A stretch of 64,000 nucleotides of DNA from Eledone cirrhosa (lineage: Eukaryota): the NCBI GenBank assembly GCA_964016885.1, contig OZ024741.1:228718001-228782000 (forward strand), read 5' to 3'. Of this stretch, positions 1,727-59,910 are shown in pieces. The position numbers and the translations under genes were made by a program. The notes under the pieces were generated by a model. It was not told the DNA's origin. It saw only the letters and a program-made list of their open reading frames with translations, and ran no database searches. The number at the start of each line of letters is the position of its first letter. Positions within the stretch are counted from its first letter, which is position 1.

Positions 1727-1796
<70 letters not shown>

Positions 1797-1800
<4 letters not shown>

Positions 1801-2060
1801 GAAAAAAATGAAACGAAATTTCATTTCCCACTCTTAGTACGGCTGTTACTTAAATATAAGTATGTATACGTACATACATATATGTATACAGACATACAGT
1901 AGTATGCATATATATATACACACATGCACACATATATATGTACGTATGGATTCACCGAACATTTATTATACGTACATATATATATGTATGTATATATATA
2001 TATATATATATATAGATACTACTGTACGTATGTATACATATATGTATGTACGTGTACATA

Positions 2061-2063
<3 letters not shown>
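1797..2063. mobile_element. Short inverted insertion of the 420-nt hammerhead family (no ribozyme in this truncated copy)
   Basis: Left part is the reverse complement and right part the sense copy of the unit at 28359-28944; same termini as 19603-20437 and 28281-28944; (TA)n both sides. Confidence 0.8.
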
Positions 2064-2121
<58 letters not shown>

Positions 2122-4804: not shown

Positions 4805-4997
4805 TACAGGTTGGTTTCTTTAGCACGCCGCCGAGAACAATGTCATCGAAAAAGCCTTGAACGGATAGTTTAACATAACAACTAGAGCGTGCCGGCCTCG
4901 ACCGTGTTGATGTTAAGCGCCCAGATGAGATAATCATTTTCTCGATCGAGGTAGGAGGGCATATCTCTAATCTAGGACGCTACATGCTGCGACAAGT
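4805..4997 (+). pseudogene. Decayed CRE-clade-like non-LTR retrotransposon endonuclease fragment
   Basis: Piecewise translation HAAENNVIEKALN...LERAGLDRVDVKRPDEIIIF...DATCCD matches the RH-N-I-RAL / LE-GL-R-DG-RPDG / WDATC pattern of CRE-type RLE domains; frameshifted. Confidence 0.55.
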
Positions 4998-5082
4998 CTT
5001 ATATTCCACGGGGCTCAGCTGAGATATACCACCTTGATTGGGTGCAGTTTCCTCCCCACTTCTACTTACTTTCATTATTGAA

Positions 5083-5268
5083 TGGCACTATCGGTAGAGG
5101 GTCGGACGCCATGCATTGACGCATATTTACGGCCCTTGCCATTCTGAGTTCAAATCCCGCCGAGGTTAACTTTGCCTTTCATCCTTACGGGGTCGATAAA
5201 ATAGAGTACCAGTAATGCACTGCACTGGGTAATTGCTGGCCTTGTGCCAAAAGTAGAAACAATTATTG
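5083..5268 (+). mobile_element. tRNA-derived SINE, family 1
   Basis: Same A/B boxes (GAGTTCAAATCCC) and body as 12683-12863; ends AGAAACAATTATT. Confidence 0.85.
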
Positions 5269-5271
5269 AAT

Positions 5272-6420
5272 TCTTCTTCTCTTCTTCTTCTTCGCCCACT
5301 TATTCTTTAGTGGGTCCTATCAAAAGCAACCGTCTTCAAATGATCCGGCTGGATCTCCAAGCGAGACCAGCTGAGTTCATGGTTCTTATCCAACCATCCT
5401 GCTCGGGCTCTACGCCTGGGTCTCCTGTCGGTGGGTTTTACCCGTAACATCTGTCCGGCGATTCTTTCCTGAGACATTCTAGCCACATGCCTATAGTATC
5501 GGAACTGTGATCTCTCAATTCAGGGAAGTAACGGCCCTACCTGGAGTGGCTCTCTGATCTCTGAGCTATGCACTTTATCAAGTTATTCCAAGCAACCTTC
5601 GGAGGAACCCTATTTCGGCCGATTGCATTTGCGATCGTATACTTCCGTTCAGTACCCACAATTCAAAACCATAGGTAAGGGTTGACATGAATACCTAATT
5701 GAAGTTAATGAGTTTCGTTTCTGATTACTGAATGCTGGAGCTGGCACACTACTGCACCAGCTCCAGCAATTCTTGCACTTAATTCGGACCCTAGACACTT
5801 GAACTTCTCTTCCTGCTTCAGTGGAACTCCATTCACATGTAGAGTGCACTACGCAGGCTCCATTGAGAGAACGAGTGTCTCAGTCATGGCAATACTGATT
5901 TTCATTCCAGCTAAATTCCATTCAAACCAATCAAGTGCATGTAGGATATTACTTTCTAACGAGTTAACTAATAGCGTGTCATCTGCAACTTCCCGCTGAC
6001 TGATTCTACACCCGCCAGAGAGGTGTCAATACGTACCGTTTGACGATACCGACTTTCACATTGAATGGTTTCGATTTAACACCATTTATCCGACCCCAAA
6101 TTCTCGGGCATTCGGTTAGAGACATCAGGGCAACAAGAAGCTATCCAGGGTTAAGCAAGGCGATCCATCTATAATTGGAGCAATCTCTCTTGTCTCCCAT
6201 TTTGAATATTGGGATTATCACTGCCGATTGCCAATGCTTAGGCGCCTTTCCAGAGATCGAGGCCACCCACACCCAGCACACGCGACTCAGCCAGAGAATA
6301 CCTCTATTAAAGGTTTTAACATCTCGGAGTGAATATCAGCCACCCCAGTGGCCTTGTTACATTTGAGCATTTTAATTGCTCGTGTTATCTCAGCCCCAGA
6401 TAGATTAGTCATTGTTCCCA
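5272..6420 (-). pseudogene. Decayed RTE-clade LINE (Rex3/Expander-like) 3' part
   Basis: Minus strand encodes VFMSTLTYGFELWVLNGSIRSQMQSAEIGFLRR (about 5600-5695) and an ADD RT motif near 5980; ends in a (GAA)n tail at 5272-5292. Confidence 0.7.
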
Positions 6421-11403: not shown

Positions 11404-11420
11404 TATATACTATATATATA

Positions 11421-12420
11421 TTGTTATACTTTGGGAGGGTCATGTTGCCAATAAGAAACACACGCACCAGTTGCTTTCACTTCAATTTAATTTATTATAT
11501 ATTTATAAATTTACAAATTTATAAATTTCTGGTTGGTTGGTTGGTTCCACAACCAGATAGTTGTTTATATATATATAGTCATAGTTCTTTCGTCACACAC
11601 TCTGTGACCTCTTCAGTGACTGGGGATTTCTTTCTTCGTTCCTGTGCCTTTCCTTTCTTCTATCCTACGCCATTTTGTTTGTGTGTGGGTTGCGTGCTCC
11701 GTTTGCGCATGCGCCACATCCGGGTGTCTGTGTGTGTTTGTGTTCATTTTTCTATTTTTCTATTTATATTTTTCTATTTGTTTGTTTATTTATTTATTTA
11801 TTGTTGGTTGGTTGTTTGTTCTATGTGTGTGTGTGTTTTCATTTTGCCTTGTGTGTGTTTTCATTTTGTGTGTGTTTTCAATTGTAAGTTGTTTGTTCTA
11901 TGTGTGTGTGTGTTTTCATTTTGTCCTTAATTGTAAGTTGTGATGTTGCTGTTCCACTCATATTTTCTATTTAATTTTGGTTTTAATTCTTTTATGCTTA
12001 CTGCCTCTGTAATTTGCCTAAACATTGCGTCTTTCTTGTGTGTGGATTCTATTTTTATTTCTATGCTCTCTAATTTACCCCTGTGTTCTATCTTAGCATG
12101 TTGGTAGAGCACAGATGATTCTTTATTATCTTGGAGGTCTCGCCAGTGTTCATTTATTCGTTCCCCTATACTACGAGCTGTCTCACCTATGTACACTATA
12201 TTTTTGTTTCTACATTGTCCTTCAGTACATCTTATGCTATATACTACATTTCTAGTTTTACAGTTAATATGGGGGCTTATTTTACAGGTTATACATTTCT
12301 TATCTATACATGAGGGTCTTTGGAACGGGTATGTCTTGCTAATAAGTGTTTTTACGGAGGTACCAGGTCTTTCTACTATCTTTTCACCTTAGCGAATCTG
12401 GTCCCTTACGATTTGAACAA
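11421..12420 (-). mobile_element. 5'-truncated Penelope-like element (GIY-YIG end, 3' UTR/pLTR with hammerhead)
   Basis: Minus strand reads Cys-rich linker CIDKKCITCK...CKTRNVVYSIRC then YIGETARSIGERINEH...RQITEAVSI...LNRKYEW (ORF 11927-12196); hammerhead at 11577-11621; terminus shared with 17326-17421 and about 1500-1580. Confidence 0.8.
11577..11621 (-). ncRNA. Minimal type I hammerhead ribozyme motif
   Basis: Minus strand: AGTCA-CTGAAGA-G-GTCACA/GAGTG/TGTGAC-GAAA-GAAC-TA-TGACT; intact core, CUA site. Confidence 0.8.
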
Positions 12421-15544: not shown

Positions 15545-17145
15545 CATAAAAACAGCTCTACAAGCAGAAAACCTTTATACTCTGAATAACGTACCTTTTA
15601 GCACTCTCTGTGCCCCTTATAACCATCATCAAGAAACTATGCTCAGTAAGAAGATCCTAGATGGAGCAGAACATCTGCGGCAATATCCTGGTTCCAAGAA
15701 TTACCCGACAAACGCAACACTCGCTTCCTGCAACTCGACATAGAAAACTACCATGCTTCTATCTCGGAGCCCCTCCTGTATGACGCAATTACCTTAGCCA
15801 CGAATTTTACCACCATTACCGATGCTGAGCAAGTTGTTATCCTCCACGCCCGTAAGACCTTTCTATACCACGATGGATCTTACTGGATCAACAAGAAGTC
15901 TCAGACCACATTTGACGTCAGCATGGGAGCGAATGACTCGGCTGAAATTAGCGACCTTGTGGGCTTGTACATTTTACATAACATGAAGAACCTCTTTACC
16001 GGCCTAACCGGAGGTTTATACCGAGACGACGGCCTCTTCGCCCTGCACAAGGTTAACCCCAGAACCACCGATGGGTTTCGGAGAAACTTAAGCTCGTTCA
16101 TCTCTAATCTATGATTTAGTATAACTATAGAATCTAATATGACTAGGGTCAACTTCTTAGATGTCACTCTCGATCTAGATACTTCCCTCTATTACCCGTA
16201 CCACAAACCTAACGAGTCCCTTAGATATATTAATGTTAATTCTAACCACCCCAAAAACATCACTGATAACTTAGTAAAAAGCGTCTCTATTAGTATCTCT
16301 GGCCTCTCTGCCAACGAAGATATTTTTAACGCCTTTGCCTCCTACTACAATGACGTCTTCGCCCGCAGCGGATTTAAAGAAACGATAACCTACCTAGAAA
16401 CGACCGCAAGATTGCAGAGGAGGAATAGGCTTAGGCAGATTAGCTGGTACAACCATCCCTTCAATAGAGAGGTCTCTACACCGATAGCTAGGATTTTCTT
16501 CACTTTGCTGAAAACACACTTCCCCATACAACATAGGTACTACACCATCTTTAATAAGAACACAATAAGACTCTCCTACTCCACTACACCTAACCTAGCT
16601 AGGAATATAGCCAACCACAATTCTAAAAAATTAAATAAGCCAACCACCTCCGAACCCAATCCCCGGACTGGGTTCTTGTGTAATTGCCTAAATAAGGAAG
16701 CCTGCCCACTTGAAAACAATGCCTGACAAATGATATCGTATACAAATGCGATGTCATCTCAGGCACTGATGATCGCAATAACAAAAAGACTTACATCGGC
16801 ATGACTTCCAATACCCACTGCTTCAGAAGACCGGACAAATCAAACCAGACAACACTCGCCTCTTATGTTTGGTACCTCAAAAGGAACTCCACCCCCTTCA
16901 CGCTTAAATGGAAAATACTCAAGAAAAGCGCGCTCTTACATCGGAGGACACAAGGGCTGCGACCTTTGTATCTCAGAGAGCTATGAAATTTTATTCGCCA
17001 AAGGACGTTACTGAACAAACTCTCTGAACACTGCCCGAACTGCATGCACAAGAACTTTGCAACTTTCAAATACCTTAAGCCAGTGTTAATGCCCGATGGC
17101 TAAAAACGACTTCCCCCTTTTAGCCCGTCTACCTCCTTCCCACCC
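15545..17145 (+). pseudogene. Penelope-like retroelement (Naiad-like), RT + GIY-YIG, 5'-truncated and disrupted
   Basis: [61 protein letters not shown] (CxCx5C), DIVYKC...TYIG, C-terminal CDLC; one in-frame stop and several frameshifts. Confidence 0.88.
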
Positions 17146-19570: not shown

Positions 19571-20538
<968 letters not shown>

Positions 20539-23852: not shown

Positions 23853-23922
23853 ATTTTTACCTAAAAACATTTTTTACAATTCCATGCCGCCCGTCCCTTA
23901 ATCTATTTTATTTCTCATTCTT

Positions 23923-28230: not shown

Positions 28231-28280
<50 letters not shown>

Positions 28281-28284
<4 letters not shown>

Positions 28285-28944
28285 GGAAAAAATGAAACGA
28301 AATTTCATTTCCCACTCTTAGTACGGCTGTTACTTAAATATAAGTATGTACACGTACACTGGACACTACAGCTTAATACGGGATGTTTGTTTACAAACAC
28401 ACCGAGCATTATAATAAATGTTCGGTGAATCCATACGTACATATATATATGTGTGCATGTATGTATACATATATACATACTACTGTACGTCTGTATACAT
28501 ATATGTATGTACGTGTACATACTTATATTTAAGTAACAGCCGTACTAAGAGTGGGAAATGAAATTTCGTTTCATTTTTTCCGTTTATCGTTTTCGGTGCA
28601 CCCGGCCGATTAACCCACTCGATATGCAAATTGGGCTACTCAGCCGTTAATATGCATAAGGTAAGTATATACGTTCAACAATCTGGCAGGAAGGTATACG
28701 TTGCTGATGATAGCTAATAAGCTTGAAACTAGTACAGCGTTCCTTTGTCAGTGTTGAACAAACGAGCAACGATGGTTGCTGGACACTACGACTTAATACG
28801 GGATGTTTGTTTACAAACACACCGAGCATTATAATAAATGTTCAATGAATCCATACGTACATATATATATGTGTGCATGTATGTATACATATATACATAC
28901 TACTGTACGTCTGTATACATATATGTATGTACGTGTACATACTT
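28281..28944 (+). mobile_element. Retrozyme-like element: 1.4 tandem copies of a 420-nt unit plus short inverted end
   Basis: 28359-28524 repeats exactly 420 nt later at 28779-28944; 28281-28358 is an inverted piece; no ORF; hammerhead at 28698-28740. Confidence 0.85.
28698..28740 (+). ncRNA. Minimal type I hammerhead ribozyme motif
   Basis: ACGTTG-CTGATGA-T-AGCT/AATA/AGCT-T-GAAA-CTAG-TA-CAGCGT; palindromic ACTAGT stem III; GUA site. Confidence 0.82.
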
Positions 28945-29041
28945 ATATATATATATATATACATATATACACACACACAGATATATGCATATATGTATTA
29001 TATATATATGAATGAATATATATATATATATATATTTATAC

Positions 29042-29123
<82 letters not shown>

Positions 29124-31513
29124 GGGGCGGAACAAGCTAAAACATTCTGGAGAGGAATATGGGAGCAGGATGTTAGACACAATGCCCCGGCAGGGTGGAT
29201 TGAGACAGTACAGAGGGAGATCGGTGAGCAGGCACAGCAACAGACTGATTTGAGTATCACAGTTGAAACTCTTAAGGGGCAAGCCAAAAAACTAACCAAC
29301 TGGAAATCACCAGGCCCAGATGGTGTGCAGGGGTATTGGATTAAACATTTAACATCCCTCCACCCGAAGCTGACGGCCATGTTCAATGACTGCTTAGTGT
29401 CGGGTGAGGTGCCAGAGTGGTTGACAAAAGGTACCACAGTTCTGATAATGAAAGACCGAATCAAGGGTAATGATGTTACCAACTATAGACCTATCACATG
29501 TCTGCCCGTAATGTGGAAACTGTTGACGAGCATTGTGTCTGAGGAAATCTACCATCACCTCCACACAAACAACTTGTTGCCGGACGAACAGAAAGGATGC
29601 CGAAAGAAGTCACGTGGTACAAAGGACCAGTTGCTTATTGATAAGATGGTAATGGGGAATTGCAGGAGGAGACACACTGATCTTGCCATGGGATGGATAG
29701 ACTACAGAAAGGCATTTGACATGGTGCCTCATTCCTGGATCACCAAAAGCCTGGAGATCTTCAGGGTGGCAGATAACATCAGACAGTTGCTGGGCAGGAG
29801 TATGGGGTCCTGGGAGACAGAGTTGACATCAACTGGAGTATCCTTGGGAAGCGTGAAGATCAAGAGAGGTATCTTCCAGGGAGATAGCCTGTTCCCTCTG
29901 TTCTTTGTCCTTGCCCTGATGCCCTTGACCATTATGCTGCGAAAAGTGAGAGCAGGATACAAGTTGGGAAGGGGAGAGCTTACCATCAATCACCTCCTCT
30001 TCATGGACGATCTTAAGCTCTTCGGGAAAAGTGAGAAGGAGTTGGATGTGCTTGTTGACACTGTCCGTATTTTCAGCAGTGATATATGTATGCAGTTTGG
30101 TATTGGTAAATGTGGAGTCATTGTGATGAGGAGGGGTAGGTTGAGCAGAAGTAACGGGATCCAGATACCAACAGGTGAGATGATAAAGGAAATTGACTCT
30201 GAGGAAGGATACAAGTATTTGGGCGTTCTGGAGGCTGATGGCATAAAGAACAAAAAAATGAAGGAATTGTTAAGAACTGAATACATTCGGAGAGTAAGGA
30301 GCGTATTGAAGTCACATCTGAACAGCAGAAATGCCATAAGCGCAGTAAATTCCCGAGCTGTGTCTATTATTAGGTACAGTGCGGGAATTCTGAGATGGAA
30401 TGTTGCTGAACAAAAAGAAATGGATAGGAAGACTAGGAAGCTATTGACTATCTACAACATGTTCCACAAGAGGAGTGATGTCGATAGACTCTACCTAAGG
30501 AGATCTGAGGGTGGAAGAGGTCTTATCAGCATAGAGGACTGTGTTCAGATGGAGAAAAACAACCTATACAAATACGTGACCTATAGTAAGGAGCCAATGC
30601 TCAGAGCTGTACTGAAGGAGGGGACAGTAGGCCAGGGGATACCCAAGGAGGAAATAACATCAAGGAGGAAGAGCAGCCTTAAGGGAAAATCCCTTCATAG
30701 TACCTTCTTTGAGAAAACTGAATTTAGAGATCCACAGACATGGAACTGGTTGAGAAGAGGTGACCTCAAAAAGGCTACAGAAGGAATGCTAATGGCTGCG
30801 CAGGAGCAGGCCCTCAAAACGAAGTGGTTGAAGCACCATATCTACAAGGAGGAGGCTAGCCCACTGTGCAGGATCTGTGGAGAGAGAGGGGAGACTGTGG
30901 CTCACATTGTGTCCGAGTGTAAACACCTAGCCCAGACCCGCTATAAGGGCTGGAGACACGATGTGATGGGCAGGGTGATCCACTGGCACCTGTGCAAAGT
31001 AAACAATCTACCACATTCTGAGAAATGGTATGAGCATAGGCCAGAGGCGGTGATGGAGAACAGTCAGGTGAAGGTGCTGTGGGATTTTAGGATACAGACG
31101 GACAAAAAACTGGAACACAATAGACCTGACCTGGTGGTTGTGGACAAAGAAAAAAGATCGTGCCTGATTGTGGATGTGGCCTGCCCGTTCGACACGAGAG
31201 TGCAAGAGAAAGAGAGGGAGAAAATTAACCGATACCAGGACCTAAAGTGGGAGGTGAAAAGGATTTGGAACTGCCATGAAGTCAAAGTGATCCCGATTGT
31301 CATAGGCGCACTGGGGACTATCTCCAAAGGTTTCCAGGGATGGTTAAAGAAAATCGGCCCCTTCACGCTTTTTGGAACGCTTCAAAAGGCATGCTTGCTT
31401 GGAACGGCAAGAACCCTCCGATACGTCCTGAATATCTGAGGCTGCAGGTAGTGGCTTGATATTCAATCCAACGGACTTTCCAGTTAACCAACATCAATGA
31501 CTGAGATTCAAGG
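29124..31513 (+). mobile_element. R4/Dong-clade non-LTR retrotransposon, family A, copy 1 (5'-truncated)
   Basis: Flanked by (AAT)n at 29046-29123 and 31514-31549; uninterrupted ORF; 3' UTR ends GAGATTCAAGG. Confidence 0.92.
29250..31439 (+). CDS. Reverse transcriptase + CCHC finger + restriction-like endonuclease (N-terminally truncated)
   Basis: KSPGPDG, NYRPITCL, WIDYRKAFD, GIFQGDSL, LFMDDLK, CRIC...H...C, RHD, RPDL..D, EKINRY; frame is open from 29124. Confidence 0.92.
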   Translation: MSITVETLKGQAKKLTNWKSPGPDGVQGYWIKHLTSLHPKLTAMFNDCLVSGEVPEWLTKGTTVLIMKDRIKGNDVTNYRPITCLPVMWKLLTSIVSEEIYHHLHTNNLLPDEQKGCRKKSRGTKDQLLIDKMVMGNCRRRHTDLAMGWIDYRKAFDMVPHSWITKSLEIFRVADNIRQLLGRSMGSWETELTSTGVSLGSVKIKRGIFQGDSLFPLFFVLALMPLTIMLRKVRAGYKLGRGELTINHLLFMDDLKLFGKSEKELDVLVDTVRIFSSDICMQFGIGKCGVIVMRRGRLSRSNGIQIPTGEMIKEIDSEEGYKYLGVLEADGIKNKKMKELLRTEYIRRVRSVLKSHLNSRNAISAVNSRAVSIIRYSAGILRWNVAEQKEMDRKTRKLLTIYNMFHKRSDVDRLYLRRSEGGRGLISIEDCVQMEKNNLYKYVTYSKEPMLRAVLKEGTVGQGIPKEEITSRRKSSLKGKSLHSTFFEKTEFRDPQTWNWLRRGDLKKATEGMLMAAQEQALKTKWLKHHIYKEEASPLCRICGERGETVAHIVSECKHLAQTRYKGWRHDVMGRVIHWHLCKVNNLPHSEKWYEHRPEAVMENSQVKVLWDFRIQTDKKLEHNRPDLVVVDKEKRSCLIVDVACPFDTRVQEKEREKINRYQDLKWEVKRIWNCHEVKVIPIVIGALGTISKGFQGWLKKIGPFTLFGTLQKACLLGTARTLRYVLNI

Positions 31514-31548
31514 AATAACAATAACAATAATAATAATAATAATAATAA

Positions 31549-34500
31549 TATCGTAAATGATAAAGAAATGAATGAGAATGAACTTGCCAACTTGAAGGAT
31601 GAAATTATGATCGAATGGATGAAAATGAAAGAATCTGACATGGGGGAACGAGACACCCTCCCTAAGATCCAGAACTCCAAACAGAACCAAAAGATAATAC
31701 ACAAGACTAACATAATTCTCAAAAACATTATCATCACAAACAAACTAAACATTACTGACTTAAATCATCTCTATTATGCATCGGCTAAAGTCACCACTCA
31801 CTTATGTGGAGTGAAGATGAAAAAACAAAGGAATTCCCACAAGAAATCTACTTGGCAAGATAACATCAATCGCCAAATAAACCTTCTCCGATCTGACATA
31901 GAAATTTTAACAAACTATAAAGTTGGTGAACATGTTAAACAAACTAAACTTAGAAAATTGAAAAAAAAGTACAGTATAAGATCAACATGTGACATAGACA
32001 TGCTGATAGAAACAATCAAGCAAAAAGTGTCGGCCAAAGCTGCTCGTATAAGGCGCTTTGAAAAACGATCTAGATTCTATAAGGACAATAATATGTTCAA
32101 AAACAACCAAAGAAACTTCTACAGAAAAATTGGTAAGTCAACAATAACTGCTAAATCAATACCACCCAAGGAGGAAGTGCAAGAATCCTGCGAAAAGATC
32201 TGAACCGAAGAAAAAGTTCATAACATACATGCCCCATGGATAGACAGACAAATGAAAGAAACAGCTCACCTTGAAGAACAAACATGGGAAAATATAACAG
32301 TTGAACAGCTGCGCTTGGCTCTAAGAAAAATCAGCAAATGGAAATCCCCAGGAAAAGACAAAATACAAAACTTTTGGATAAATGCCTTCACAGAGTCTCA
32401 TGAGCTGTTAGCCCAACTTTACAATGAAATAGTTAAGGAGCCAGAAAAGATACCATCATGGCTAGTTAACGGCATTACATTCCTGCTACCGAAGAATGAT
32501 GAGACAAACAATCCCAAAAATTACAGACCGATAACCTGCTTGACCACAATGTATAAAATTTTAACATCAGTCCTAACTGAATACACATATGACCACCTGA
32601 TAACAAATGACCTATTTCCCATTGAGCAGAAAGGGTGTAAACGAGGCTCATATGGCTGTAAGGATCAGCTTCTGGTTAACAAAATGATACTGGAAGATTG
32701 TCATAATAGACACAAAAATCTATCGATTGCTTGGATAGATTATAAAAAAGCATTTGATAGTTTGCCACACAGTTGGATTGAAAAATGTTTAGAGATTTTC
32801 AAAATATCCCCCGTTGTCAGGAGGTTTTTGTCATTCAGTATGAGGACATGGAGAACGACACTCCTTTTGATTAGTGAAACAAAATCACTGGAAGCTGGAG
32901 AAGTTAACATTAATTGTGGAATTTTTCAGGGTGACTCTTTATCACCGCTTTTATTCTGCATCGCGCTTATACCATTAAGTAAAATGCTCAATGAAACAAA
33001 ACATGGATATAGAGTCTATGACAAAACCATTAATCACCTGTTCTACATGGATGACCTGAAACTATTTGCAAAAAATGATGAACAATTGCAAGGGCTATTA
33101 TCCACTGTGAAGCAGTTCAGTGATGACATTAAAATGGAGTTTGGACTGGATGAATGCGCCAAAGCAACGTTCACCAGAGGAAAGCTGCTGAAGAGTTCAG
33201 ACATTAATCTTGATCGGGGGAACGTGATAAGAGAGCTTGATCAAGAACAAACTTACAAATATCTAGGTGTTTGTGAAGGAGACGGAATCAAGCACTCGAC
33301 AATGAGGGAAAGGATAAGGAAGGAATGTTACCGCAGAGTCAGAGCAATCTTAAGAACGGAATTGAATGCAAGGAATAGGATCGATGCCATAAACACGCTT
33401 GCCATACCAGTAGTAACCTACAGTTACAATGTTATCAACTGGTCAAGCACAGAGATCCGTAGGCTCGATACAAAAATCCGAAAATTCTTAACCATGCACA
33501 GAATGCATCACCCTAAGGCAGACATAGATAGAATATATCTCCCTAGGAAAGATGGAGGACGTGGGTTAATCCAGTTAGACATTGCGTTGAAAACTGCAAC
33601 AATTGGATTATCCACATATCTAAGGGAATCACATGATTGGATGATGAAACTCGTTTTGAAACACGAAAGCACCAAAAGATCATATTCCATTACAAAAGAT
33701 GCACAAAGATACAGTAATGGACTACAAATTTCAGAAGTCCCATTTACTGCTGAAATGGAAAACACAGAAAAAGCAAAGCAGGTAAAAGTAACTGCAAAGA
33801 AAGAACTGCTACAGAAACTGGCTAAGAAATGGCAAGAAAAGCCTCTGTATGGAAAATACCCAGAGCGAGCTAACAATCCTGATGTTGACAAAACTTTAAC
33901 CCATCAGTGGTTGGCATCCTCTGGACTGAAATCGGAGACTGAAGGACTGATTATATCCGCACAAGATCAGTGTCTGCCAACAAAAAATTACCAAGCCAAC
34001 ATAATAAAAAATGGGTGCAGCCCATTATGCCGTGTATGCAAAAAACAACCAGAGACCATTGACCATATAATTTCAATGTGCTGTCCTATAGTTCCAACCG
34101 AATACCTAAACAGGCATGACAGAGCTGCACAATACATACATTGGATAATGTGTAAGCATTTTGACCTGCCCCATCAAAAGAATTGGTGGGAGCATCAACC
34201 ACCTCCCATACTTGAAAAAGATCACATCTCAATCTTGTGGAACTTTAGCATCCAAACAGACCGAAAAATAGATGCAAACAGACCTGATATAATATTGAAA
34301 GACTTTCAAAAGAGGGTATGCCTGCTAATTGATATGTCTGTTCCAATAGACAAGAATGTATCTATAAAAACATTTGAAAAATTGAGCAAGTATAAGGACC
34401 TGGAGATAGAAATTGGAAAAATGTGGAAATTGAGAACTAAAACAATACCAGTGGTTGTAGGCGCTCTGGGAATGATACCTAAGGGGTCTAATGATTACTT

Positions 34501-34737
34501 ATCGCAAATCCCAGGAAACCCGCGTATAGGAGAAATACAAAAGATAGTACTAATGGGAACTGCCCATATACTAAGGAAGATTCTGTCAATATAAGTACAT
34601 CACAAGTCTAAACACTAAAGATGCATGTGTGAATATGTATGTTCTTTCTTGAACATGGCGGACCTTGTTGTCTCTTGAGGTCACTGGTTGTGACTTGGTG
34701 ATAACTCGTATGAACATAAAGCAAGATAAATGCAACT

Positions 34738-34739
<2 letters not shown>
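31549..34739 (+). mobile_element. R4/Dong-clade element, family B, copy 1 (5'-truncated, one nonsense codon)
   Basis: ORFs 31568-32203 and 32252-34594 are in one frame separated by TGA (TGG in copy at 48948); YMDD RT, CRVC/H/C finger, RPDI..D..EKLSKY; followed by (AAT)n 34740-34775. Confidence 0.92.
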
Positions 34740-34775
<36 letters not shown>

Positions 34776-34776
<1 letters not shown>

Positions 34777-35165
34777 TTTTCTTTATTAACCACAAGGGTT
34801 TACATAAAGTAGACATTAAGGACAGTACAGGACAATACAGGACGGTACAAATGGGCATTTCTGCGTGTAAAAAACAAAAACAGAGGATGTAATAAAAATA
34901 ACAATGAAAAATTCCCCAATAGGGGGAGACTTCGGAGGGACATTTGTGGAGAAAGTCCATTAAAAGGCCACAGTGACCCTGACCACCAGGGCAAGTGCTC
35001 TCTCCCAGTTTTCCACCTTTAATTTACAGACACATACTCGGGCCATTCTTGCTTCTCTCACCCATCTTTCAACAAAATGCTGGGAAGAGACCACTTCCCT
35101 CTCTACCCTGATTTTCATTTTCAAATGAAATTTGAAAAAGTTAATCAGGGCATCACCGAAGAGGT
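34776..35165 (-). mobile_element. 3' fragment of a Tx1-clade LINE
   Basis: Homologous to 41330-41790 (TTTCTTTATT..CCACAAGGG, AAAATT.CCCCAATAGGGGG, CCCTGACCACCAGGGCAAG, CCCTGATTTTC.T.TTCAA). Confidence 0.75.
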
Positions 35166-35309
35166 AATAATAATAATAAAAAAAAGAAAAGTAAAACAGA
35201 CAGACAGACAGACAAGCAAAAGAACTAAGTCAGACATTCAAACATTACTTTACAATGAAACTTATGCTTATTTTTGTTTTTTTTTACTTATTTGTTTGTT
35301 TGTTTATTT

Positions 35310-38300
35310 ATGTTCGTCTACAGCGTGATAGTGCCACACTAAAATCACCGAGGGTGATCAAATCACCGGAGTTGATGAAATCACCAGTGGTTATGTAACC
35401 ATACATTCACCAATCCTCGATAAGAGTGTTTCAATGTCGAACCTAAACAGTTCGAATAACGGTGAAGTGGAGACTGGAATGTCATGTAACAGACTCTCAC
35501 CCAGCAGGTACTCCCTGGCTCAGCAGCAGGGACCTGGCTGTCAACCAAATAGTGCTGGTGTCGGAGGAAGAAGAAGGAAATGGACCAGAACCAACTGGAC
35601 GAAAGAATTGAATAGAACTGTTATGCAATGTTACCTGAAGTGTCACCCCAAGGAAAAAGGCTATAGGAAACGGATGCATAACATCTGGAACGAGATTGGT
35701 CTATTTAAATTAGGTGAACAAAAATTGGCCGGACAGGCTCGGGTAATAAGAACTAATGGGTGGTTAAGCGAGCTGGAACTGGAGGAACTGAGCAGAGATT
35801 TTAGGTTGGAAATGGAGTGTGGAGTATGCCAGGCAAACGAGCCAGTGGGAAATGAAGGTGAAGAGGTTCAGAGAACGGAGGAACCACCCGAAGCAGACAA
35901 TGATCTGAATGCTGAAATAAATAATACCTGGAACAGGGATACGGCCATTGAGGAGATGAATGCTGACGGGCTAGGACAAGATTTGGTTGATATCCTAAAC
36001 TTAGTGGTAGATGAAATGAACAATGATAGTGGGAAACGTATGAACCTAATATTTGTAGACAGGAAAACGTTAAAAGAAACAACAGCTAAGGTAAACAAAG
36101 TCATCCCATACCTTGAGACGAGGAACCTTCACCAGTGCAACAATATCCTCAAAGCAACAGCAAATGCGGGGAGGAAATTACTTGGCATAAAAGCGAGAGG
36201 AAACAACAAACAAGAAAGATCAGAACTTTGGTGGAAGAAACGACTGAATGGTCAAATCAGGGAAATGAGAAATGACATTGGAAAGCTTGAGTCCCTACTG
36301 AATGGGACACTAAAAACATAGACACTAAAAATAGACTGGAAATAAAGTACAAAACTAGGAGGAAAAAGCTAAATATTATCATCGAGGAACTGAAGCAACG
36401 CATTGTAGCAAAGAGTGCAAAAATTAGGCGATACGAGAGCAAAGTCAGTCAGTATAGACAGAACCGCATGTTTGACAACAACCAGGAGATGCTGTTTGGA
36501 CAGCTTGAAGGGAAAGAAAGAGGCAACGACTTGATCCCTGAGGCGGAACAAACTAAAACATTCTGGAGAGGACTATGGGAGCAGGATATTAAACATAATG
36601 ACCAGGCAGTGTGACTTGAGACAGTACAAAAGGAGATTAGTGAACAGGCACACCAACAAACTGATTTGAGTATCACAGTTGAAACTCTTAAGGGGCAGGC
36701 CAAAAAACTAACCAACTGGAAATCACCAGGCCCAGATGGTGTGCAGGGGTATTGGATTAAAAATATAACATCCCTCCACCCGAAACTGACAACCATTTTC
36801 AATGACTGCTTGATGTCAGGCGAGGTACCAGAGTGGTTGACAAAAGGTACCACAGTTCTGGTAATGAAAGACCGAATCAAGGGTAATGATGTTAACAAAT
36901 ATACACCTATCCCATGTCTGTCCGTAATGTGGAAACTGTTGACAAGCATTGTGTCTGAGGAAATCTACCATCACCTCCACACAAACAACTTGTTACCGGA
37001 CGAACAGAAAGGATGCCGAAAGAAGTCCCGTGGTACAAAGGACCAGTTACTTATTGATAAGATGGTAATGAGGAATTGCAAGAGGAGACACACTGGTCTT
37101 TCCATGGTATGGATAGACTACAAAAAGGCATTCGACATGGTACCTCATTCTTGGATCACCAACAGCCTAGAGATCTTCAGGGTGACAGATAACATCAGAC
37201 AGTTGTTCAGCAAAAGTATGAAGTCCTAGAAAACAGAGTTAACATCAACTGGAGAATCCTTCGGAGGCGTGAAGATCAAGAGAGGTATCTTCCAGGGAGA
37301 TAGTCTGTCCCCTCGGTTGTTTTTCCTTGCCCTGATGCCCCTGACCATTATACTGCGAAAAGTGAGAACAGGATACAAGTTGGGAAAGGGAGAGCTTACC
37401 ATCAATCACCTCCTCTTCATGGACGATCTTAAGCTCTTCGGGAAGAGTGAGAAGGAGTTGGATGTGCTTGTTGACACTGTCCGTATTTTCAGCAATGATA
37501 TATGTATGCAATTTGGTATTAGTAATTGTGGAGTCCTTGTGATGAAGAGGGGTAAATTGAGCAGAAGCAACGGAATCCAGGTACCAACAGGTGAGCTGAT
37601 AAAGGAAATTGACAATTTAGATGTATTTGGGTGTTCTTGGAGGCTGATGACATCAAGAACAAAAAAATGAAGGAATTGATAAGATCTGAATACATTCTGA
37701 GAATAAGGAGCATATTAAAGTCACATCTGAACAGAAGGAAAGCCATAAGTGCAGTAAATTCCCGAGCTGTGTCTATTATTAGGTACAGTGCGGGAATTCT
37801 GAGATGGAATGTTGCTGAACAAAAATAAATGGATAGGAAGACTAGGAATCTATTGACTATCTACAGCATGTTCCACCAGAGGAGTGATGTCGATAGACTC
37901 TACTTAAGGAGATCTGAAGGCGGAAGATGTCTTATCAGAAAAGAGGACTGTGTTCAGATGGAGAACAACAACCTACACAAATACGTGACCGATAGTAAGG
38001 AGCCAATGCTCAGAATTGTACTGAAGGAGAGGACAATAGACCAGAGGATGTTCAAGGAGGAAATAACAACAAGGAGAAAGAGGAGCCTTCATGAAAAATC
38101 CCTTCATAGTACCTTTTTTGAGAAACCGGAATTCAGAGGTCCACAGACATGGAACTGGTTGAAAAGAGGAGACCTGAAAAAGGCTACAGAAGGAATGCTA
38201 ATGGCTGCGCAAGAGCAGGCCCTCTAAAAAAAAGTGGCTGAAACACCATATTTACAAGGAGGAGGCTAGCCCACTGTGCAGGATCTGTGGAGAGAGAGGA

Positions 38301-38920
38301 GTCTCTGGCTCACATTGTATCCAAGTGTAAACACCTAGCCCAGACTCACTATAAAGGCTGGAGACATGAAGTGATGAGCAGAGTGATCCACTGGCACCTA
38401 TGCAAAGTAAACAATTTACCACATTTTGAGAAGTGGTATGAGCATAAGCCAGAGTCGGTGATAGAAAACGATCAGGTGAAGGTGCTGTGGGATTTTAGGA
38501 TACAGACAGACAAGAAACTGGAACACAATAGACCTGCCCTGGTGGTTTTGGACAAGGAAAAAAGATCGTGCCTGATTGTGGGTGTGGCCTGCCCATTCGA
38601 CACGAGAGTGCAAGAGAAGGAGAGGGAGAAAATTAACCGATACCAGGACTTAAAGTGGGAGTTAAAAAGGATTTGGAACTGCCATGAAGTCAAGGTCGTC
38701 CCGATTGTCATAGGCGCACTAGGTACTATCTCAAGGGGTTTCCAGGGATGGTTAAAGAAGATTAGTCCAGCTCCGCTTTTGGAACACTTCAAAAGGCATG
38801 CTTGCTGGGAACAGCAAGAACTCTCCGATACGTCCTGAATATCTGAGGCTGCAGGTAGTGGCTTGATATTCATTTCAACAAACTTTCCAGTTAAATAACA
38901 TCAATGACTGAGACTCAAAG
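35310..38920 (+). pseudogene. R4/Dong-clade element, family A, copy 2 (near full-length, decayed)
   Basis: ATG at 35434, N-terminal WTKELNRTVMQCY...GYRKRMHNIW...EQKLAGQARVI domain typical of R4/Dong; RT and RLE in broken ORFs; 5' boundary approximate; (AAT)n tail 38921-39000. Confidence 0.9.
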
Positions 38921-38923
38921 AAC

Positions 38924-38998
<75 letters not shown>

Positions 38999-39001
<3 letters not shown>

Positions 39002-41233
39002 TAACCAACTGGAAATCACCAGGCCCAGATGGTGTGCAGGGGTATTGGATTAAACATTTAACATCCCTCCACCCGAAGCTGACGGCCATGTTCAATGACT
39101 GCTTGGTGTCGGGTGAGGTGCCAGAGTGGTTGACAAAAGGTACCACAGTTCTGATAATGAAAGACCGAATCAAGGGTAATGATGTTACCAACTATAGACC
39201 TATCACATGTCTGCCCGTAATGTGGAAACTGTTGACGAGCATTGTGTCTGAGGAAATCTACCATCACCTCCACACAAACAACTTGTTACCGGACGAACAG
39301 AAAGGATGCCGAAAGAAGTCACGTGGTACAAAGGACCAGTTGCTTATTGATAAGATGGTAATGGGGAATTGCAGGAGGAGACACACTGATCTTGCCATGG
39401 GATGGATAGACTACAGAAAGGCGTTTGACATGGTGCCTCATTCCTGGATCACCAAAAGCCTGGAGATCTTCAGGGTGGCAGATAACATCAGACAGTTGCT
39501 GGGCAGGAGTATGGGGTCCTGGGAGACAGAGTTGACATCAACTGGAGTACCCTTGGGAAGCGTGAAGATCAAGAGAGGTATCTTCCAGGGAGATAGCCTG
39601 TCCTCTCTGTTTGTCCTTGCCCTGATGCCCTTGCCCTGATGCCCTTGACCATTATGCTGCGAAAAGTGAGAGCAGGATACAAGCTGGGAAGGGGAGAGCT
39701 TACCATCAACCACCTCCTCTTCATGGACGATCTTAAGCTCTTCGGGAAAAGTGAGAAGGAGTTGGATGTGCTTGTTGACACTGTCCGTATTTTCAGCAGT
39801 GATATATGTATGCAGTTTGGTATTGGTAAATGTGGAGTCATTGTGATGAAGAGGGGTAGGTTGAGCAGAAGTAACGGGATCCAGATACCAACAGGTGAGA
39901 TGATAAAGGAAATTGACTCTGAGGAAGGATACAAGTATTTGGGCGTTCTGGAGGCTGATGGCATAAAGAACAAAAAAATGAAGGAATTGTTAAGAACTGA
40001 ATACATTCGGAGAGTAAGGAGCGTATTGAAGTCACATCTGAACAGCAGAAATGCCATAAGCGCAGTAAATTCCCGAGCTGTGTCTATTATTAGGTACAGT
40101 GCGGGAATTCTGAGATGGAATGTTGCTGAACAAAAAGAAATGGATAGGAAGACTAGGAAGCTATTGACTATCTACAACATGTTCCACAAGAGGAGTGATG
40201 TCGATAGACTCTACCTAAGGAGATCTGAGGGTGGAAGAGGTCTTATCAGCATAGAGGACTGTGTTCAGATGGAGAAAAACAACCTATACAAATACGTGAC
40301 CTATAGTAAGGAGCCAATGCTCAGAACTGTACTGAAGGAGGGGACAGTAGGCCAGGGGATGTCCAAGGAGGAAATAACATCAAGGAGGAAGAGCAGCCTT
40401 AAGGGAAAATCCCTTCATAGTACCTTCTTTGAGAAAACTGAATTTAGAGATCCACAGACATGGAACTGGTTGAGAAGAGGAGACCTCAAAAAGGCTACAG
40501 AAGGAATGCTAATGGCTGCGCAGGAGCAGGCCCTCAAAACGAAGTGGTTGAAGCACCATATCTACAAGCAGGAGGCTAGCCCACTGTGCAGGATCTGTGG
40601 AGAGAGAGAGGAGACTGTGGCTCACATTGTGTCCGAGTGTAAACACCTAGCCCAGACCCACTATAAGGGCTGGAGACACGATGTGATGGACAGGGTGATC
40701 CACTGGCACCTGTGCAAAGTAAACAATTTACCACATTCTGAGAAATGGTATGAGCATAGGCCAGAGGCGGTGATGGAGAACAATCAGGTGAAGGTGCTGT
40801 GGGATTTTAGGATACAGACGGACAAAAAACTGGAACACAATAGACCTGACCTGGTGGTTGTGGACAAAGAAAAAAGATCGTGCCTGATTGTGGATGTGGC
40901 CTGCCCGTTCGACACGAGAGTGCAAGAGAAGGAGAGGGAGAAAATTAACCGATACCAGGACCTAAAGTGGGAGGTGAAAAGGATTTGGAACTGCCATGAA
41001 GTCAAAGTGATCCCGATTGTCATAGGCGCACTGGGGACTATCTCCAAAAGTTTCCAGGGATGGTTAAAGAAAATCGGCCCCTTCACGCTTTTTGGAACGC
41101 TTCAAAAGGCATGCTTGCTTGGAACAGCAAGAACCCTCCGATACGTCCTGAATATCTGAGGCTGCAGGTAGTGGCTTGATATTCAATCCAACGGACTTTC
41201 CAGTTAACCAACATCAATGACTGAGATTCAAGG
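38999..41233 (+). mobile_element. R4/Dong-clade element, family A, copy 3 (5'-truncated)
   Basis: Almost identical to copy 1; one frameshift from a 14-bp tandem duplication (CTTGCCCTGATGCC) plus a 3-bp loss at about 39600-39645; (AAT)n both sides. Confidence 0.92.
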
Positions 41234-51809: not shown

Positions 51810-52963
51810 TAAAGAATGTTGTTAAAAACGAAGGAAAAAAAATTGGGGGATAAATGTATTAGTGAGAAATAACAAACTTATATAGACTACAAAGAATTTA
51901 GATTCATAATAGGAAATTAAAATAGTTTATATGTATACTTATAGGTATTAATTTTAAGAAAAGATAGCTGTAAAAGGGAAATATAATTATGAAGTTCTCT
52001 GTAGAAAAATAATAATTATAGGTTAACTAAATTAAAAATTACAAAAACTAATTATAATAATTTGTAAAATATAAGTGTAAGGTGTATATTAATTAGGTTT
52101 ATAATATTTGAAAGTTCTTCTAATTCTATGATTACACGATATAATTAATTCTTGTCGCTTATTTAATAGGTTATCCTTAGATTTCATTATTTCAAAAAGT
52201 TCCTGGGAACATAATCTACACTCATATCTGTTATTTTGATCAAGGGTGGTCCTTTTGAGCACACTCCAGCTCAGGTTATAATCGATATTCTTTTTTCTAT
52301 AATTATTAATTATTTCAGCCAAGGGTGTTGTATGAGCTAATGCTGCATTTTAAAAACTGTGTTTGTGGGTATTGAATCTTACTTTAAATTGGTTGGAAGT
52401 TGCTCCTATATATGAATAAGTTGAGTCCTTAGTGGTAATTTTACATTTATATACTATGTTATTAATAAGGTAATTTCCTTCTAATGGACAATTTGCTTTG
52501 TTTCTACAGTTACAACCATTCGTGAATATTATATCAGGGGAATTAGTCAAATTAGGTGTGGAATTTACTCTACTTGTTGTATGTGAAGGAGATGGTGGTT
52601 TGTTGCGGTTTATTTTAGTATTATGGTTAGTTTGATGTGTTGGTGGTATATTCAGGGTTTCTTTTACATTTATATGCATTGTAGGCACTTATATTTTGTT
52701 GCATATTTTTGGTAGTGGAGTAGGAAAATTTGACCTTTGATCTATTGAAAATTTGATGGTATTTATGGTTTGGCGGGAAGTTTTTCTCTAGGATAGTAAA
52801 AATATTTTTAGGGATTTTATCTTTAATTTGTAGATTAAATGGAGCATTATACCAAGTAACTCGGTTTCGATGCTGTTTTTTTAATATTTATACGATGTAT
52901 CCTGATGTTTACTAAGAGAGTTAGTATTAGTGAATTTATTATACATATGTTTAGTTAGATTCA

Positions 52964-53774: not shown

Positions 53775-53910
53775 AGCTATTTCGGCACTGGAAACTGAGA
53801 TCTGATTGAAAAAAAAAAAAAAAAAAAAACTTTCTCGAAAACAAAGCTACTGGAAAAACAGAGGAGTCTGTTTTTTTTTTTAAATTACGTACCACAAGAC
53901 AAATTAGGAT

Positions 53911-54669
53911 ATGGCGACGAGACTACGAACGAGCGAAGCGATTAGGGCATTTGCCGGTGAAGGCGATGTTGTCGCTTGGCTACGAAAAGTCCGGCTGGTC
54001 GCAAGCTTACAAAAGATAGATGTGGCTGGCCTCATGGCACTGTACCTCGAGGGGGACGCGTTGGTACTCTTCCTTGAGTTGGATGAACACAGCCAAAGTG
54101 ATGCGCAAAAGATTGAGAGGTGCATGATAGAAGCGTTCGCGGAGGGACCGTTAGCCGCTTTTGCTAAGCTGGCAAGAATTAGATGGAACGATGAACGCGT
54201 TGACATTTTCGCAGCGGAAATACGGCGATTGGCCATGTTGGCTGGATATCAGGTGGAATGCGAACGCACGGTGCGGTTGGCGTTCATAAATGGATTTCCA
54301 GACGTCATAGCGGTGAAACTGCAGCAAGTCCCCGGTTACAAAGAAATGGAGATGCGTTCACTGGTGGAAGAAGCCCGTGTCATAGCAGAAGATGCCAAGA
54401 AGAGTGTCGCGGCGATAGCAACTACTGAGGCTCAAGACATCTGGCAGCGAAATGGTGAAAGGGAGGCAACCACGGCACTCGGTCGCCCGCGAACGTTTAG
54501 AGGTCGCTGTTTTAGGTGCCAGGGCCCGCATATGGCGAGAGACTGTAGAGAGTCAAGGCCGGAAATAATATGCTACCAGTGTAAGCGACCAGGCCACATC
54601 GCTACTAACTGCGACCAGGGAAACGATCCAAGGGGAACTACTGCGCCAGTAGTTGCCCCTTACGAGTAG
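53911..54669 (+). CDS. gag: Gag with two CCHC zinc knuckles
   Basis: Intact 252-aa ORF; CFRCQGPHMARDC and CYQCKRPGHIATNC. Confidence 0.9.
   Translation: MATRLRTSEAIRAFAGEGDVVAWLRKVRLVASLQKIDVAGLMALYLEGDALVLFLELDEHSQSDAQKIERCMIEAFAEGPLAAFAKLARIRWNDERVDIFAAEIRRLAMLAGYQVECERTVRLAFINGFPDVIAVKLQQVPGYKEMEMRSLVEEARVIAEDAKKSVAAIATTEAQDIWQRNGEREATTALGRPRTFRGRCFRCQGPHMARDCRESRPEIICYQCKRPGHIATNCDQGNDPRGTTAPVVAPYE
54618..54661 (+). promoter_or_regulatory. -1 programmed ribosomal frameshift signal
   Basis: In-frame heptamer G_GGA_AAC (54618-54624), 5-nt spacer, hairpin AAGGGGAACTACTG-CGC-CAGTAGTTGCCCCTT; -1 frame is open into the protease. Confidence 0.85.
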
Positions 54670-57394
54670 AGGCGCTGCCCGTGGTGGAAGTCTTCGTGAG
54701 GGGGAAGCCACAGCGAGCCCTCGTGGACACGGGCTGTACAACGACACTGGTGACCGCGGGGATCGCGCAGAGGTGGAGAGGGAAGAGCAGCGTAAGGACA
54801 GTCGACGACAGGAAAATTGAATGCCGAGGTCGCAGCGAGGTGGAGATGGCGGGACGGGGAAGGAAAATAAGGCTTTCTGCCATCGTAGTTGACAACATGG
54901 TGGATGGGATTGGCGTGGTTAGGGGCATGGACGCAATTGGCTGTCTAGGAGGCGTCACAGTGAACAACGTCGGTGTGTCGTTTGGCGGCGCTGCATCGGT
55001 ATGCGCTGTGAGTTCGCCACAGGAGAACCAGAATGCCAACGAGGAGAAATACCCCGCTTACACTGTGCAGGACAAAGACTTCAAGGCCGTGTTCGATGGG
55101 CAGCGATGGGTTGTTGAGTGGTAATGGAAGGGAGAACCGCCAACACTGAAGACCAAAGTGGGCTGCTATCAACACACATTGAAGGGAGACATTAGGAGCG
55201 ATTTCCAGCGAGAGGTAGAGAGATGGATTGAGGAGGGCATACTGCTTCCCTGGAAAGAGGAGGTGAAGTGCGGAGTATTGCCGTTAATGGCGGTGGCGCA
55301 ACCCACGAAGAACAAGGTGAGGCCGGTACTGGACTTTCGGGAGCTGAACGACCACGTGTCATGCCACACGGGTGGCGAGGTCACGGATGTCTGTTGGGAA
55401 ACCCTGCGTGAGTGGAGACGCATGACGGGGGGTTCCGCAATCGTAGATCTAAAGTCGGCATACTTGCAATTGCATATAGATGAGAAGCCCTGGCAGTATC
55501 AGCTGGTCAGGTATAAGGGCCGGACATATTGCCTGACGAGGCTTGGTTTCAGGCTGAGCTCCGCACCGAAGATCATGGCGGCGGTCCTCAAGACCATTCT
55601 GAGAAAGGCCGACAAGATGAAGAGGGCCACTAACTCCTACATTGACGACATCCTAGTGGACGAGTGTGTAGTGTCGGCGGCGGAGGTCACGAGCTATTTA
55701 TGGACTGGCTGCGAAGCCGTCAGAAGCGTTGGAGCGAGGAGCCGCGCTGGGACTTAGGCTACGGCGAGACAGGACGGGCGTCTTGGTATTCCAGAGGGGA
55801 AATGAAGTTCCAGAACTGGGCCCAAGTATGAGTAGGCGGGAGGTTTTCTCGGTGTGTGGAAAGTTGGTGGGTCACTACCCGATTGCTAGGTGGCTCCGGA
55901 CGGCATGCAGCTACGTCAAGAGACGAGCGGGAGGGGTGAATTGGAGTGACACAGTGGGAGAGAGGACGGTGGCCATGATTCAGGAGATCGTGAAGAGGGT
56001 GAAGGCCGACGACCCAGTGCTGGGACGCTGGTATGTTCCCAAATCGCAGAGCGGGACCGTATGGTGCGATGCCAGCAGCATAGCGCTGGGTGTCACCTTG
56101 GAGATAGGAGGTGTTGAGATCGAGGAGGCAACCTGGCTTAGGAAGAAGGACGACTGCAACCGCATTAATGTGGCCGAACTGGACGCGGTGTTGAGAGGGT
56201 GAACCTCGCCCTGAGGTGGGGACTGCTCACCATCGAGATACGCACCGACTCGGCTACTGTACTCGGATGGGTGAGATCAGTGCTCACCAGTGAGAAGAGA
56301 CTGCGAACGAGAGGGGTGGCGGAGATGCTGATAAAGCGCCGCCTGGGAACTTTAGGAGAGCTGGCCACCGAGTTCGACATGAGGCTGAGCGTAGTTTTCG
56401 TGCCCTCAGAGAAAAATAGGGCGGACGTCTTAATCAGGGTGAAGAAAGCCTGGATGGAAGCGCCGGAGGAGGTAGAAGAGGAGATAGCTGCTGTGTGTCG
56501 GCTGACCGAGTCGGATCTGAAAGGGTTGCATGACATGCACCACATGGGAGTGGATAGGACTCTGTTCCTAGCCAGGAGAATCGACTCGGACGTTAACAGA
56601 CACAGTGTTCAAAGGGTGGTTAGAGTCTGCGTCCGATGTCAGTCCATTGATCCCGCCCCGGGTGTGCACGAAACGGGAAGCCTCCCGGTGGATCGCGACT
56701 GGAAGCGATTGGCGGTGGATGTAACGCACTACCAACAGGGAACGTACCTCCCGATGGTCGACTGTGGACCAGGACGGATCGCGATATGGAGGGAGATGAA
56801 GACTGGAACGGCCGAGGAAATCATGCGGACGTTGAGAGACGTGTTCTTAGAGCGGGGCCCTGTGGACGAACTACTGATGGACAGCAGCGCAGCGTTCCGC
56901 TCGGAGCCGCTCGGAGGCTCGATGGATGGAACGTGGACCGTTTCTTCAGAGCAGCGCACAGGCCGAACGGAAATGGAATTGTAGAGCGACACCACCGGAC
57001 GATCAAGGTAATGGCGGAACGGGGCCATATCTCACCAATGGAGGCAGTGTTCTGGTACAAAATGTCCCCTCGGGTGGGACAGGTTGAGGAATCGGTTCCA
57101 CACAGAGCAGTATTCAGATATGAGTGGCGGCACCCGTGCACGTCACCACAACGGCCAGTGGGGAGAGAGAATGCATTCGTGCATGTGGGCGAAGAAGTCT
57201 GGGTTAATCCCCCAGATGCACGCTGCACATCTCAATGGGGAAGGGGAACGGTGACGGCCGTAAATTACCAGAACAATGTGTCCGTGGACGGAGTACCACG
57301 TCATGTCCTGGATGTCCGTAGAATCACTGTGTCAACGGACTCCGAGGAAGAGGAAACCCAAAGTGCCGCCCCAACACTGCGGAGATCGCAATGA
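54618..57394 (+). pseudogene. pol: Pol (aspartic protease, RT, RNase H, integrase), disrupted
   Basis: ALVDTGC; RPVLDFRELN, DLKSAYLQ, YIDD; WCDASS, INVAELDAV, RTDS; H..H..C..C, RLAVD, LLMD, NGIVER; stop at 55122-55124 and frameshifts. Confidence 0.9.
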
Positions 57395-59211: not shown

Positions 59212-59777
59212 AAAGAATAGAGGTGTAACACACAAGTTATATACATATAACGGTTTTAAACTTAAAACCAAAACTGAATACTAACCAATACTATTACTAA
59301 TTCTCACTTATTCCTAATTAAACTATTTTTCACTGTGAACAATTTGTCAGCATTTTCTTTTCCGTTTACCAATATATATATATATATATATATAATATTT
59401 TTATATTATTATAATATATATATATTATATTATATTATATTATATTATATTATATTATATTATATTATATTATATTATATTATATTATACATATATAGCT
59501 ATACTACTTTCGGTACTTGATGAAATTATATTTGCAAACTGAAAGTGTATATTGACACAATTCGTAATTAAGTAAAGTATACATACATTTCACTATGTTT
59601 TATTTGAGGTTATTCAGTAAATACCAAATCAATTATCAGAAATTCATAAAAATGTGTTCAATTTCTACAACCTATTTTCCGATATATATTGTATTGGATG
59701 AGCTGATTTTAGGTATGTATAATAAAGTAAATGCTTGATACAATATGCACACACGAACGCACACACACACACCCACC

Positions 59778-59907
<130 letters not shown>

Positions 59908-59910
59908 CAC

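Follow-up and report, generated by a model that had tools for sequence, protein, structure and literature searches.

Structure of the insertion

The window, a 64,000-nucleotide stretch of Eledone cirrhosa DNA, includes a short non-coding tandem element inserted in a (TA)n tract. The locus consists, in order, of (TA)n (28235..28280), an 80-nt inverted arm (28279..28358, minus strand), a forward main arm of 1.4 units that is truncated at its 5′-end (28359..28944, plus strand), and (TA)n again (28945..28961). One full monomer length of 420 nt (28525..28944, plus strand) has 37% GC and no ORF; in the circularised unit, which lacks an LTR, the longest open frame across all frames is 64 codons. Positions 28359-28524 and 28779-28944 are identical at 162 of 166 positions; the longest exact run at period 420 is 103 nt, and the other periods from 415 to 425 give runs of at most 8 nt. 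The first-pass annotation, made from the sequence alone, had described an ORF-less 420-nt tandem unit with one hammerhead, and the period, the short frames and the type I core described below bear this out. It had taken 28359-28524 to recur exactly 420 nt later; the recurrence holds, the exactness does not.

That annotation had also treated the whole of 28281-28944 as tandem. However, 28279-28358 is a 100% reverse complement of 28508-28587 and lies outside the tandem. The 3′-end of this inverted arm falls at the unit position corresponding to 28587 (site B) and adjoins (TA)n, and the 3′-end of the main arm falls at a second site (site A), where it runs into the (TA)n on the other side. The inverted arm and the two fixed 3′-ends are features that the first-pass annotation had missed. 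The ∼59 nt between sites A and B (28529..28587, plus strand) correspond to a 'tail' of the kind found in Penelope-like elements (PLEs), with a predicted hairpin starting at 28555. The monomer is predicted to fold as a circle at -130 kcal/mol (z -6.9, partly due to self-complementary TA-rich sequence).

A ATGCAAAT motif at 28624..28631 (plus strand), which we take to be an octamer, may be a promoter element. It lies ∼75 nt upstream of the hammerhead core and is kept in related families 2-5; the version in the youngest subfamily differs by one base. For newt satellite 2, use of an snRNA-type promoter is cited (PMC2220036).

Two further groups of retroelement frames were observed in the window. 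Broken gag-pol-like frames at 53908-57394 (plus strand) resemble an LTR retrotransposon by eye in the ORF list. A cluster of non-LTR reverse transcriptase frames, presumably of RTE type, adjoins the locus (29127-41159), and the frame at 29127-31439 matches Pfam RVT_1.

The hammerhead

The type I hammerhead core (28699..28739, plus strand) is composed of a 5-bp stem I, CUGAUGA, a 4-bp stem II with U.U at its base, GAAA, and a 2-bp palindromic stem III, and is surrounded by an extended stem I (28673..28759, plus strand). Cleavage is predicted after GUA at 28734. Rfam Hammerhead_HH9 matches the core with an E-value of 0.0017 and 22.5 bits, below the gathering score of 52, and the hammerhead was not among the matches listed (150 of 175) in an Rfam scan of the whole window. 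The miRNA matches among those 150 were driven by microsatellites and were rejected as composition artefacts.

An alignment of 12 copies from across related families has 86.8% of its cells paired, and in 13 of the 28 pairs both bases vary. None of the 500 shuffles and none of the slid controls reaches its covariation score; given the relatedness of the 12 copies, this count of shuffles should not be read as a probability. As judged from this alignment, compensatory substitutions maintain the hammerhead fold between families. In families 1-4, stem III has 2 bp and sits within a palindromic hexamer, and the middle of the hexamer differs in family 3 but is still palindromic. Hammerheads with a weak palindromic stem III are described as cleaving efficiently only as dimers (PMC4209133).

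The predicted cut sites in arrays are ∼420 nt apart. The insertion at 28279-28951 carries a single hammerhead, whereas arrays of the family elsewhere carry several, and this locus would therefore be unable to release a monomer by itself. The monomer release proposed at the first pass does not apply to this locus. The companion statement that each unit has one intact hammerhead is correct for the family, but a third insertion in the window (below) has none. Further hammerhead-like motifs of other repeat families were seen in the window at 23922 (plus strand) and about 13445 (plus strand).

Other insertions and copy number

Three separate insertions had been recognised in the 64 kb, and all three (1795-2070, 19601-20444 and 28279-28951) were confirmed and share the head-to-head layout. 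The second includes an inverted arm (19601..19960, minus strand) that ends at site B and has a hammerhead at 19903, and a forward arm (19966..20444, plus strand) that ends at site A, with a hammerhead at 20186 that has stem mismatches. The forward arm spans 1.14 units, in agreement with the earlier view that the copy at 19962-20437 crosses the monomer junction. The third (1795..2070) is formed by a short inverted arm ending at site B and a short forward arm ending at site A, without a hammerhead.

Searches of the species' own 3.0-Gb genome returned at least 1,101 to at least 1,328 candidates, which are lower bounds. Among 40 evenly spaced 10-kb stretches, 4 contain a total of 5 insertions, two of them mirror duplicates, and the extrapolated copy number is ∼37,000 (95% range 12,000-87,000), or 30,000 if these are counted as 4 insertions. 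Insertions thus probably number tens of thousands genome-wide, as the expectation of a high copy number had implied. One retrozyme insertion is present as mirror-image copies 4.3 kb apart (L114:135-574 and 4875-5313), which points to a local inverted duplication. Two runs under other organism labels gave 3 and 1 low-depth contigs and were not taken as evidence of relatives.

Insertion ends

A total of 157 arms in 98 clusters was mapped, leaving out matches of <84% identity or <50 nt and those to microsatellite only; the sample is biased toward the best-scoring copies. Simple head-to-head pairs make up 51 of the 98 clusters. Of 151 uncut outer 3′-ends, 123 fall at two fixed sites ∼59 nt apart that both run into (TA)n: site A (near 28528) takes 52 of them and site B (28587) takes 71. 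The other 28 lie elsewhere. Where both ends of a pair are at A or B, one is at A and the other at B in 34 of 37 pairs (p = 6e-8 against 50%; one pair is a duplicate). Five more complete pairs from the young subfamily are all A+B.

The 5′-ends of the arms are scattered. Only 6 of 155 fall within 5 nt of the cleavage site, with 4.1 expected, and no pile-up at this site was found among the 155, which argues that cut linear monomers are not the main template. The cleavage site is crossed by 121 of the 155 arms, though the queries favoured crossing arms; of 6 independent arms from the evenly spaced stretches, 3 clearly cross it and one more does so by 7 nt. Target duplications in unique sequence (2 of 37, compared with 3 of 108 in the control) are not above chance, and any within (TA)n would be hidden.

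Penelope-like elements in the same genome

The 3′-end of a young, abundant autonomous PLE is present in the window at 11420-12388 (minus strand), with the end of a GIY-YIG endonuclease at 11927-12388 and a minimal-type hammerhead at 11621. Elsewhere in the genome this PLE has 150 scored matches at 99-100% identity and copies with intact open frames of 1,280-1,294 codons, the one of 1,294 codons lying at G000:C4:370.58 Mb. The CX4CXXC linker of its predicted protein fits the description of Neptune or Nematis in PMC8557442. Of 17 head-to-head pairs retrieved, 12 were scorable; each of these 12 combines a short end with a long one, at a distance of 60 nt, and lies in (TA)n. In PLEs, the tail is the sequence between two internal reverse transcription start sites, and experiments in vitro show cleavage and extension of both strands by a PLE protein, which initiates at two positions within the RNA (PMC11167929); a tail at one end and an inverted 5′ copy are PLE traits (PMC8557442). 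The A/B end pattern is the same in the retrozyme and in the control PLE, and the retrozyme therefore carries the PLE 'tail' signature.

The unit lacks both a reverse transcriptase and a GIY-YIG ORF and is not an autonomous PLE. Among the PLE ends sampled, which include the 3′ UTR of the active PLE, no sequence shared with it was found in 30 copies of the active PLE, 28 endonuclease ends and 30 further GIY-YIG loci. The few profile matches obtained were separate retrozyme insertions nearby. The 5′ flanks of 30 single-arm copies differ, and one of the 30 abuts a PLE ORF in the same orientation. It had been suggested that the unit might prove to be only a coding PLE's pLTR; for the copies studied here, these flanks and the lack of a match to any PLE 3′ UTR compared indicate otherwise. 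In that one copy (L013:1953-3250, minus strand) the 5′-end of the retrozyme joins directly onto a PLE endonuclease frame that runs in the same direction, by either a template switch or a chance neighbour, and this lone fusion can be explained by chance.

Broken reverse transcriptase-endonuclease frames of a second PLE type, Hydra-like by eye, are found at 15650-17050 (plus strand), 52185-52908 (minus strand) and 59672-61315 (minus strand), and this type has many relatives among the loci examined.

Multimer arrays

The first-pass annotation had proposed looking for multimer arrays elsewhere in the genome, and such arrays were found, the longest spanning 16.7 and at least 18.7 units. A head-to-head insertion of a very young subfamily, at G000:C1:392885868-392895229, has one arm of 16.7 units and one of 5.6. 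The 20 full units in it are 0-1 substitution apart, with a median of 18 between arms; the arms differ in length variant and in one base, which suggests two separate templates. This variant recurs at 100% identity on C70, C28, C20 and C13, where it mostly forms multimers in both arms. The units of L304 have a length of 424 (6 of 6), those of L305 426 (8 of 9), those of L306 424 (4 of 4) and those of L308 422 (5 of 8); one arm of L310 alternates 422 and 424, with a private base in each of its 4 full units. Arms of young arrays at unlinked loci are mostly uniform for a private variant. Uniform arrays, such as those of the C1 insertion and at C20:28.31 Mb, may have been smoothed by assembly or expanded at the DNA level. 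Older arrays are mixed, with period 2-3 patterns that unequal crossover would also give.

Copying of a linear transcript cannot lengthen an array, and a step from monomer to array is therefore needed. Rolling-circle copying would supply that step at insertion, and uniform young arrays are what rolling-circle reverse transcription predicts.

Related families

Further ORF-less families in the genome are family 2 (∼75% identical, units of ∼450-575 nt), family 3 (old), family 4 (466 nt) and family 5. Family 4 is a low-copy sister retrozyme (L225:2000-2810, L261, L262-L273) with a uniform array of ∼8.5 units, in which 7 full units differ by 2 substitutions; no longer array was present among 14 candidates. 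The L261 copy is head-to-head and is flanked by a ∼70-nt duplication of unique target sequence. The older sister families (L246-L259, L139:7575-7850; ∼90% identity among copies, 1,816 candidates) keep the upstream motif, the hammerhead layout and circular continuity.

Relationship to known retrozymes and PLEs

The family is a new member of the known non-LTR retrozymes. These were defined in PMC7229834, where RNA circles were shown in coral, mussel and axolotl, and where PLEs together with target-primed tandem cDNA were proposed as a hypothesis. With the retrozymes of these animals and newt satellite 2 it shares a short ORF-less tandem of <50% GC with one type I hammerhead per unit, a weak palindromic helix III, a strongly paired predicted circle and the presence of PLEs in the same genome, and the U.U at the base of helix II is also found in axolotl HHR_Amex2 (PMC7229834). 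At 420 nt, the unit is at the upper end of the 150-450 bp quoted. Fixed double ends and inverted arms are not described for metazoan retrozymes in the available text of that paper, and the larger target duplications mentioned there contrast with none beyond chance here. A 2020 review states that retrozyme repeats show no motif pointing to a helper (PMC7761336). A preprint interprets Xenopus retrozymes as non-autonomous PLE derivatives on the basis of co-occurrence and pLTR similarity; the words tail, priming and insertion site are absent from its available text, whereas the evidence here comes from junctions (bioRxiv 10.64898/2026.07.22.740005). Among the literature titles and abstracts searched, none concerned this 420-nt family or two-ended retrozyme junctions.

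Features shared with PLEs are two internal start sites bounding an optional tail, an inverted 5′-truncated copy, partial tandems and (TA)n targets (PMC11167929, PMC8557442). The retrozyme differs in having no ORF and a canonical rather than minimal hammerhead, and its ∼59-nt tail is longer than the 30-40 bp quoted for PLEs, though close to the 60 nt of this genome's active PLE. Unlike in the Anolis PLE, both start sites match the TA target for a few bases (PMC11167929). Non-autonomous Chlamys PLEs such as MRC1 are likewise non-coding and multicopy head-to-tail with PLE structure. However, their 3′-ends resemble those of autonomous partners (PMC8557442), while the present family carries a hammerhead and revealed no similarity to a partner among the PLEs sampled.

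Origin of the insertions

The best explanation, in which we have good confidence, is a non-LTR retrozyme that sits in (TA)n, has its arms head-to-head and its 3′-ends at two fixed sites, and is likely reverse-transcribed by a PLE protein, probably from circular RNA. The unit, the conserved hammerhead structure, the fixed ends ∼59 nt apart with one on each arm, the scattered 5′-ends and the uniform young multimers are direct observations. Mobilisation by a PLE is very probable, and circular RNA is the template we consider reasonably likely. The retrozyme candidacy put forward in the first-pass annotation is supported, and neither of the two opposing outcomes examined (copies that never exceed one unit elsewhere, a unit that is only a pLTR) was seen in the copies examined.

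Linear array transcripts left uncut would give the same ends, and it is possible, if rather doubtful, that the unit is a non-autonomous PLE derivative moved as uncut linear multimeric transcripts, with array growth at the DNA level and circles, if any, as a side product. In favour of such movement, the Anolis PLE uses unprocessed RNA in vitro and does not need hammerhead cleavage (PMC11167929), stem III of the retrozyme has just 2 bp, cleavage in vitro failed for 8 of 9 dimers of Xenopus retrozymes (bioRxiv 10.64898/2026.07.22.740005), and older arrays are period 2-3 mosaics. However, linear copying only shortens arrays, and several unlinked, 100% identical insertions are two-arm multimers uniform for different private variants; compensatory change across families in the predicted hammerhead fold also speaks against it.

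That the unit is only the pLTR or a 3′ fragment of an unsampled coding PLE is very unlikely. The PLE-type ends, the L013 fusion and the link drawn between Xenopus retrozymes and pLTRs (bioRxiv 10.64898/2026.07.22.740005) agree with such an origin, but ORF-less head-to-tail arrays of up to 18 units and the differing 5′ flanks of the single-arm copies do not, the sister PLE copy in L114 (83% identical) has an unrelated 3′ UTR, and the canonical short stem II is unlike the PLE hammerhead of this genome. A minisatellite arising at the DNA level, or a SINE moved by the neighbouring RTE-type LINE, would account for the tandem arrays and draws on the reverse transcriptase frame at 29127-31439. It is hardly credible, as the copies are dispersed and resemble the control PLE in having inverted arms and a fixed pair of ends, and is contradicted by the observed A+B pairing. 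The flanks of other copies differ, and the adjoining RTE-type ORF was rejected as a partner.

Under the preferred explanation of PLE-driven copying from circles, tandem arrays would be transcribed, perhaps from an internal promoter, and paired hammerheads would cut out monomers and some dimers or trimers, which a host ligase would close into circles. The PLE endonuclease would nick both strands of a (TA)n tract, and the two nicks would prime within the RNA, one at site A and one at site B. From there, each reverse transcriptase would run round its template for 0.2 to 17 units, and the two cDNAs would be joined at their 5′-truncated ends. We lean slightly towards extending this to animal retrozymes in general, which would be copied by a PLE protein via twin-primed rolling-circle reverse transcription. 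Two nicks in (TA)n would prime at two fixed sites within RNA circles, and a single step would yield back-to-back multimers that reach 17 units.

These results bear on two questions: the identity of the enzyme that mobilises retrozymes in animals, and whether it copies the circle. With two start sites, a (TA)n target and a candidate protein now defined, the model is directly testable. If it is correct, the insertion junctions of this genome record twin-primed copying, a retrozyme subfamily that is active at present occurs alongside an intact PLE of equal spacing, and the long-proposed step from circle to DNA could be rebuilt in vitro. It would also provide a one-step route for the birth of satellite-like arrays.
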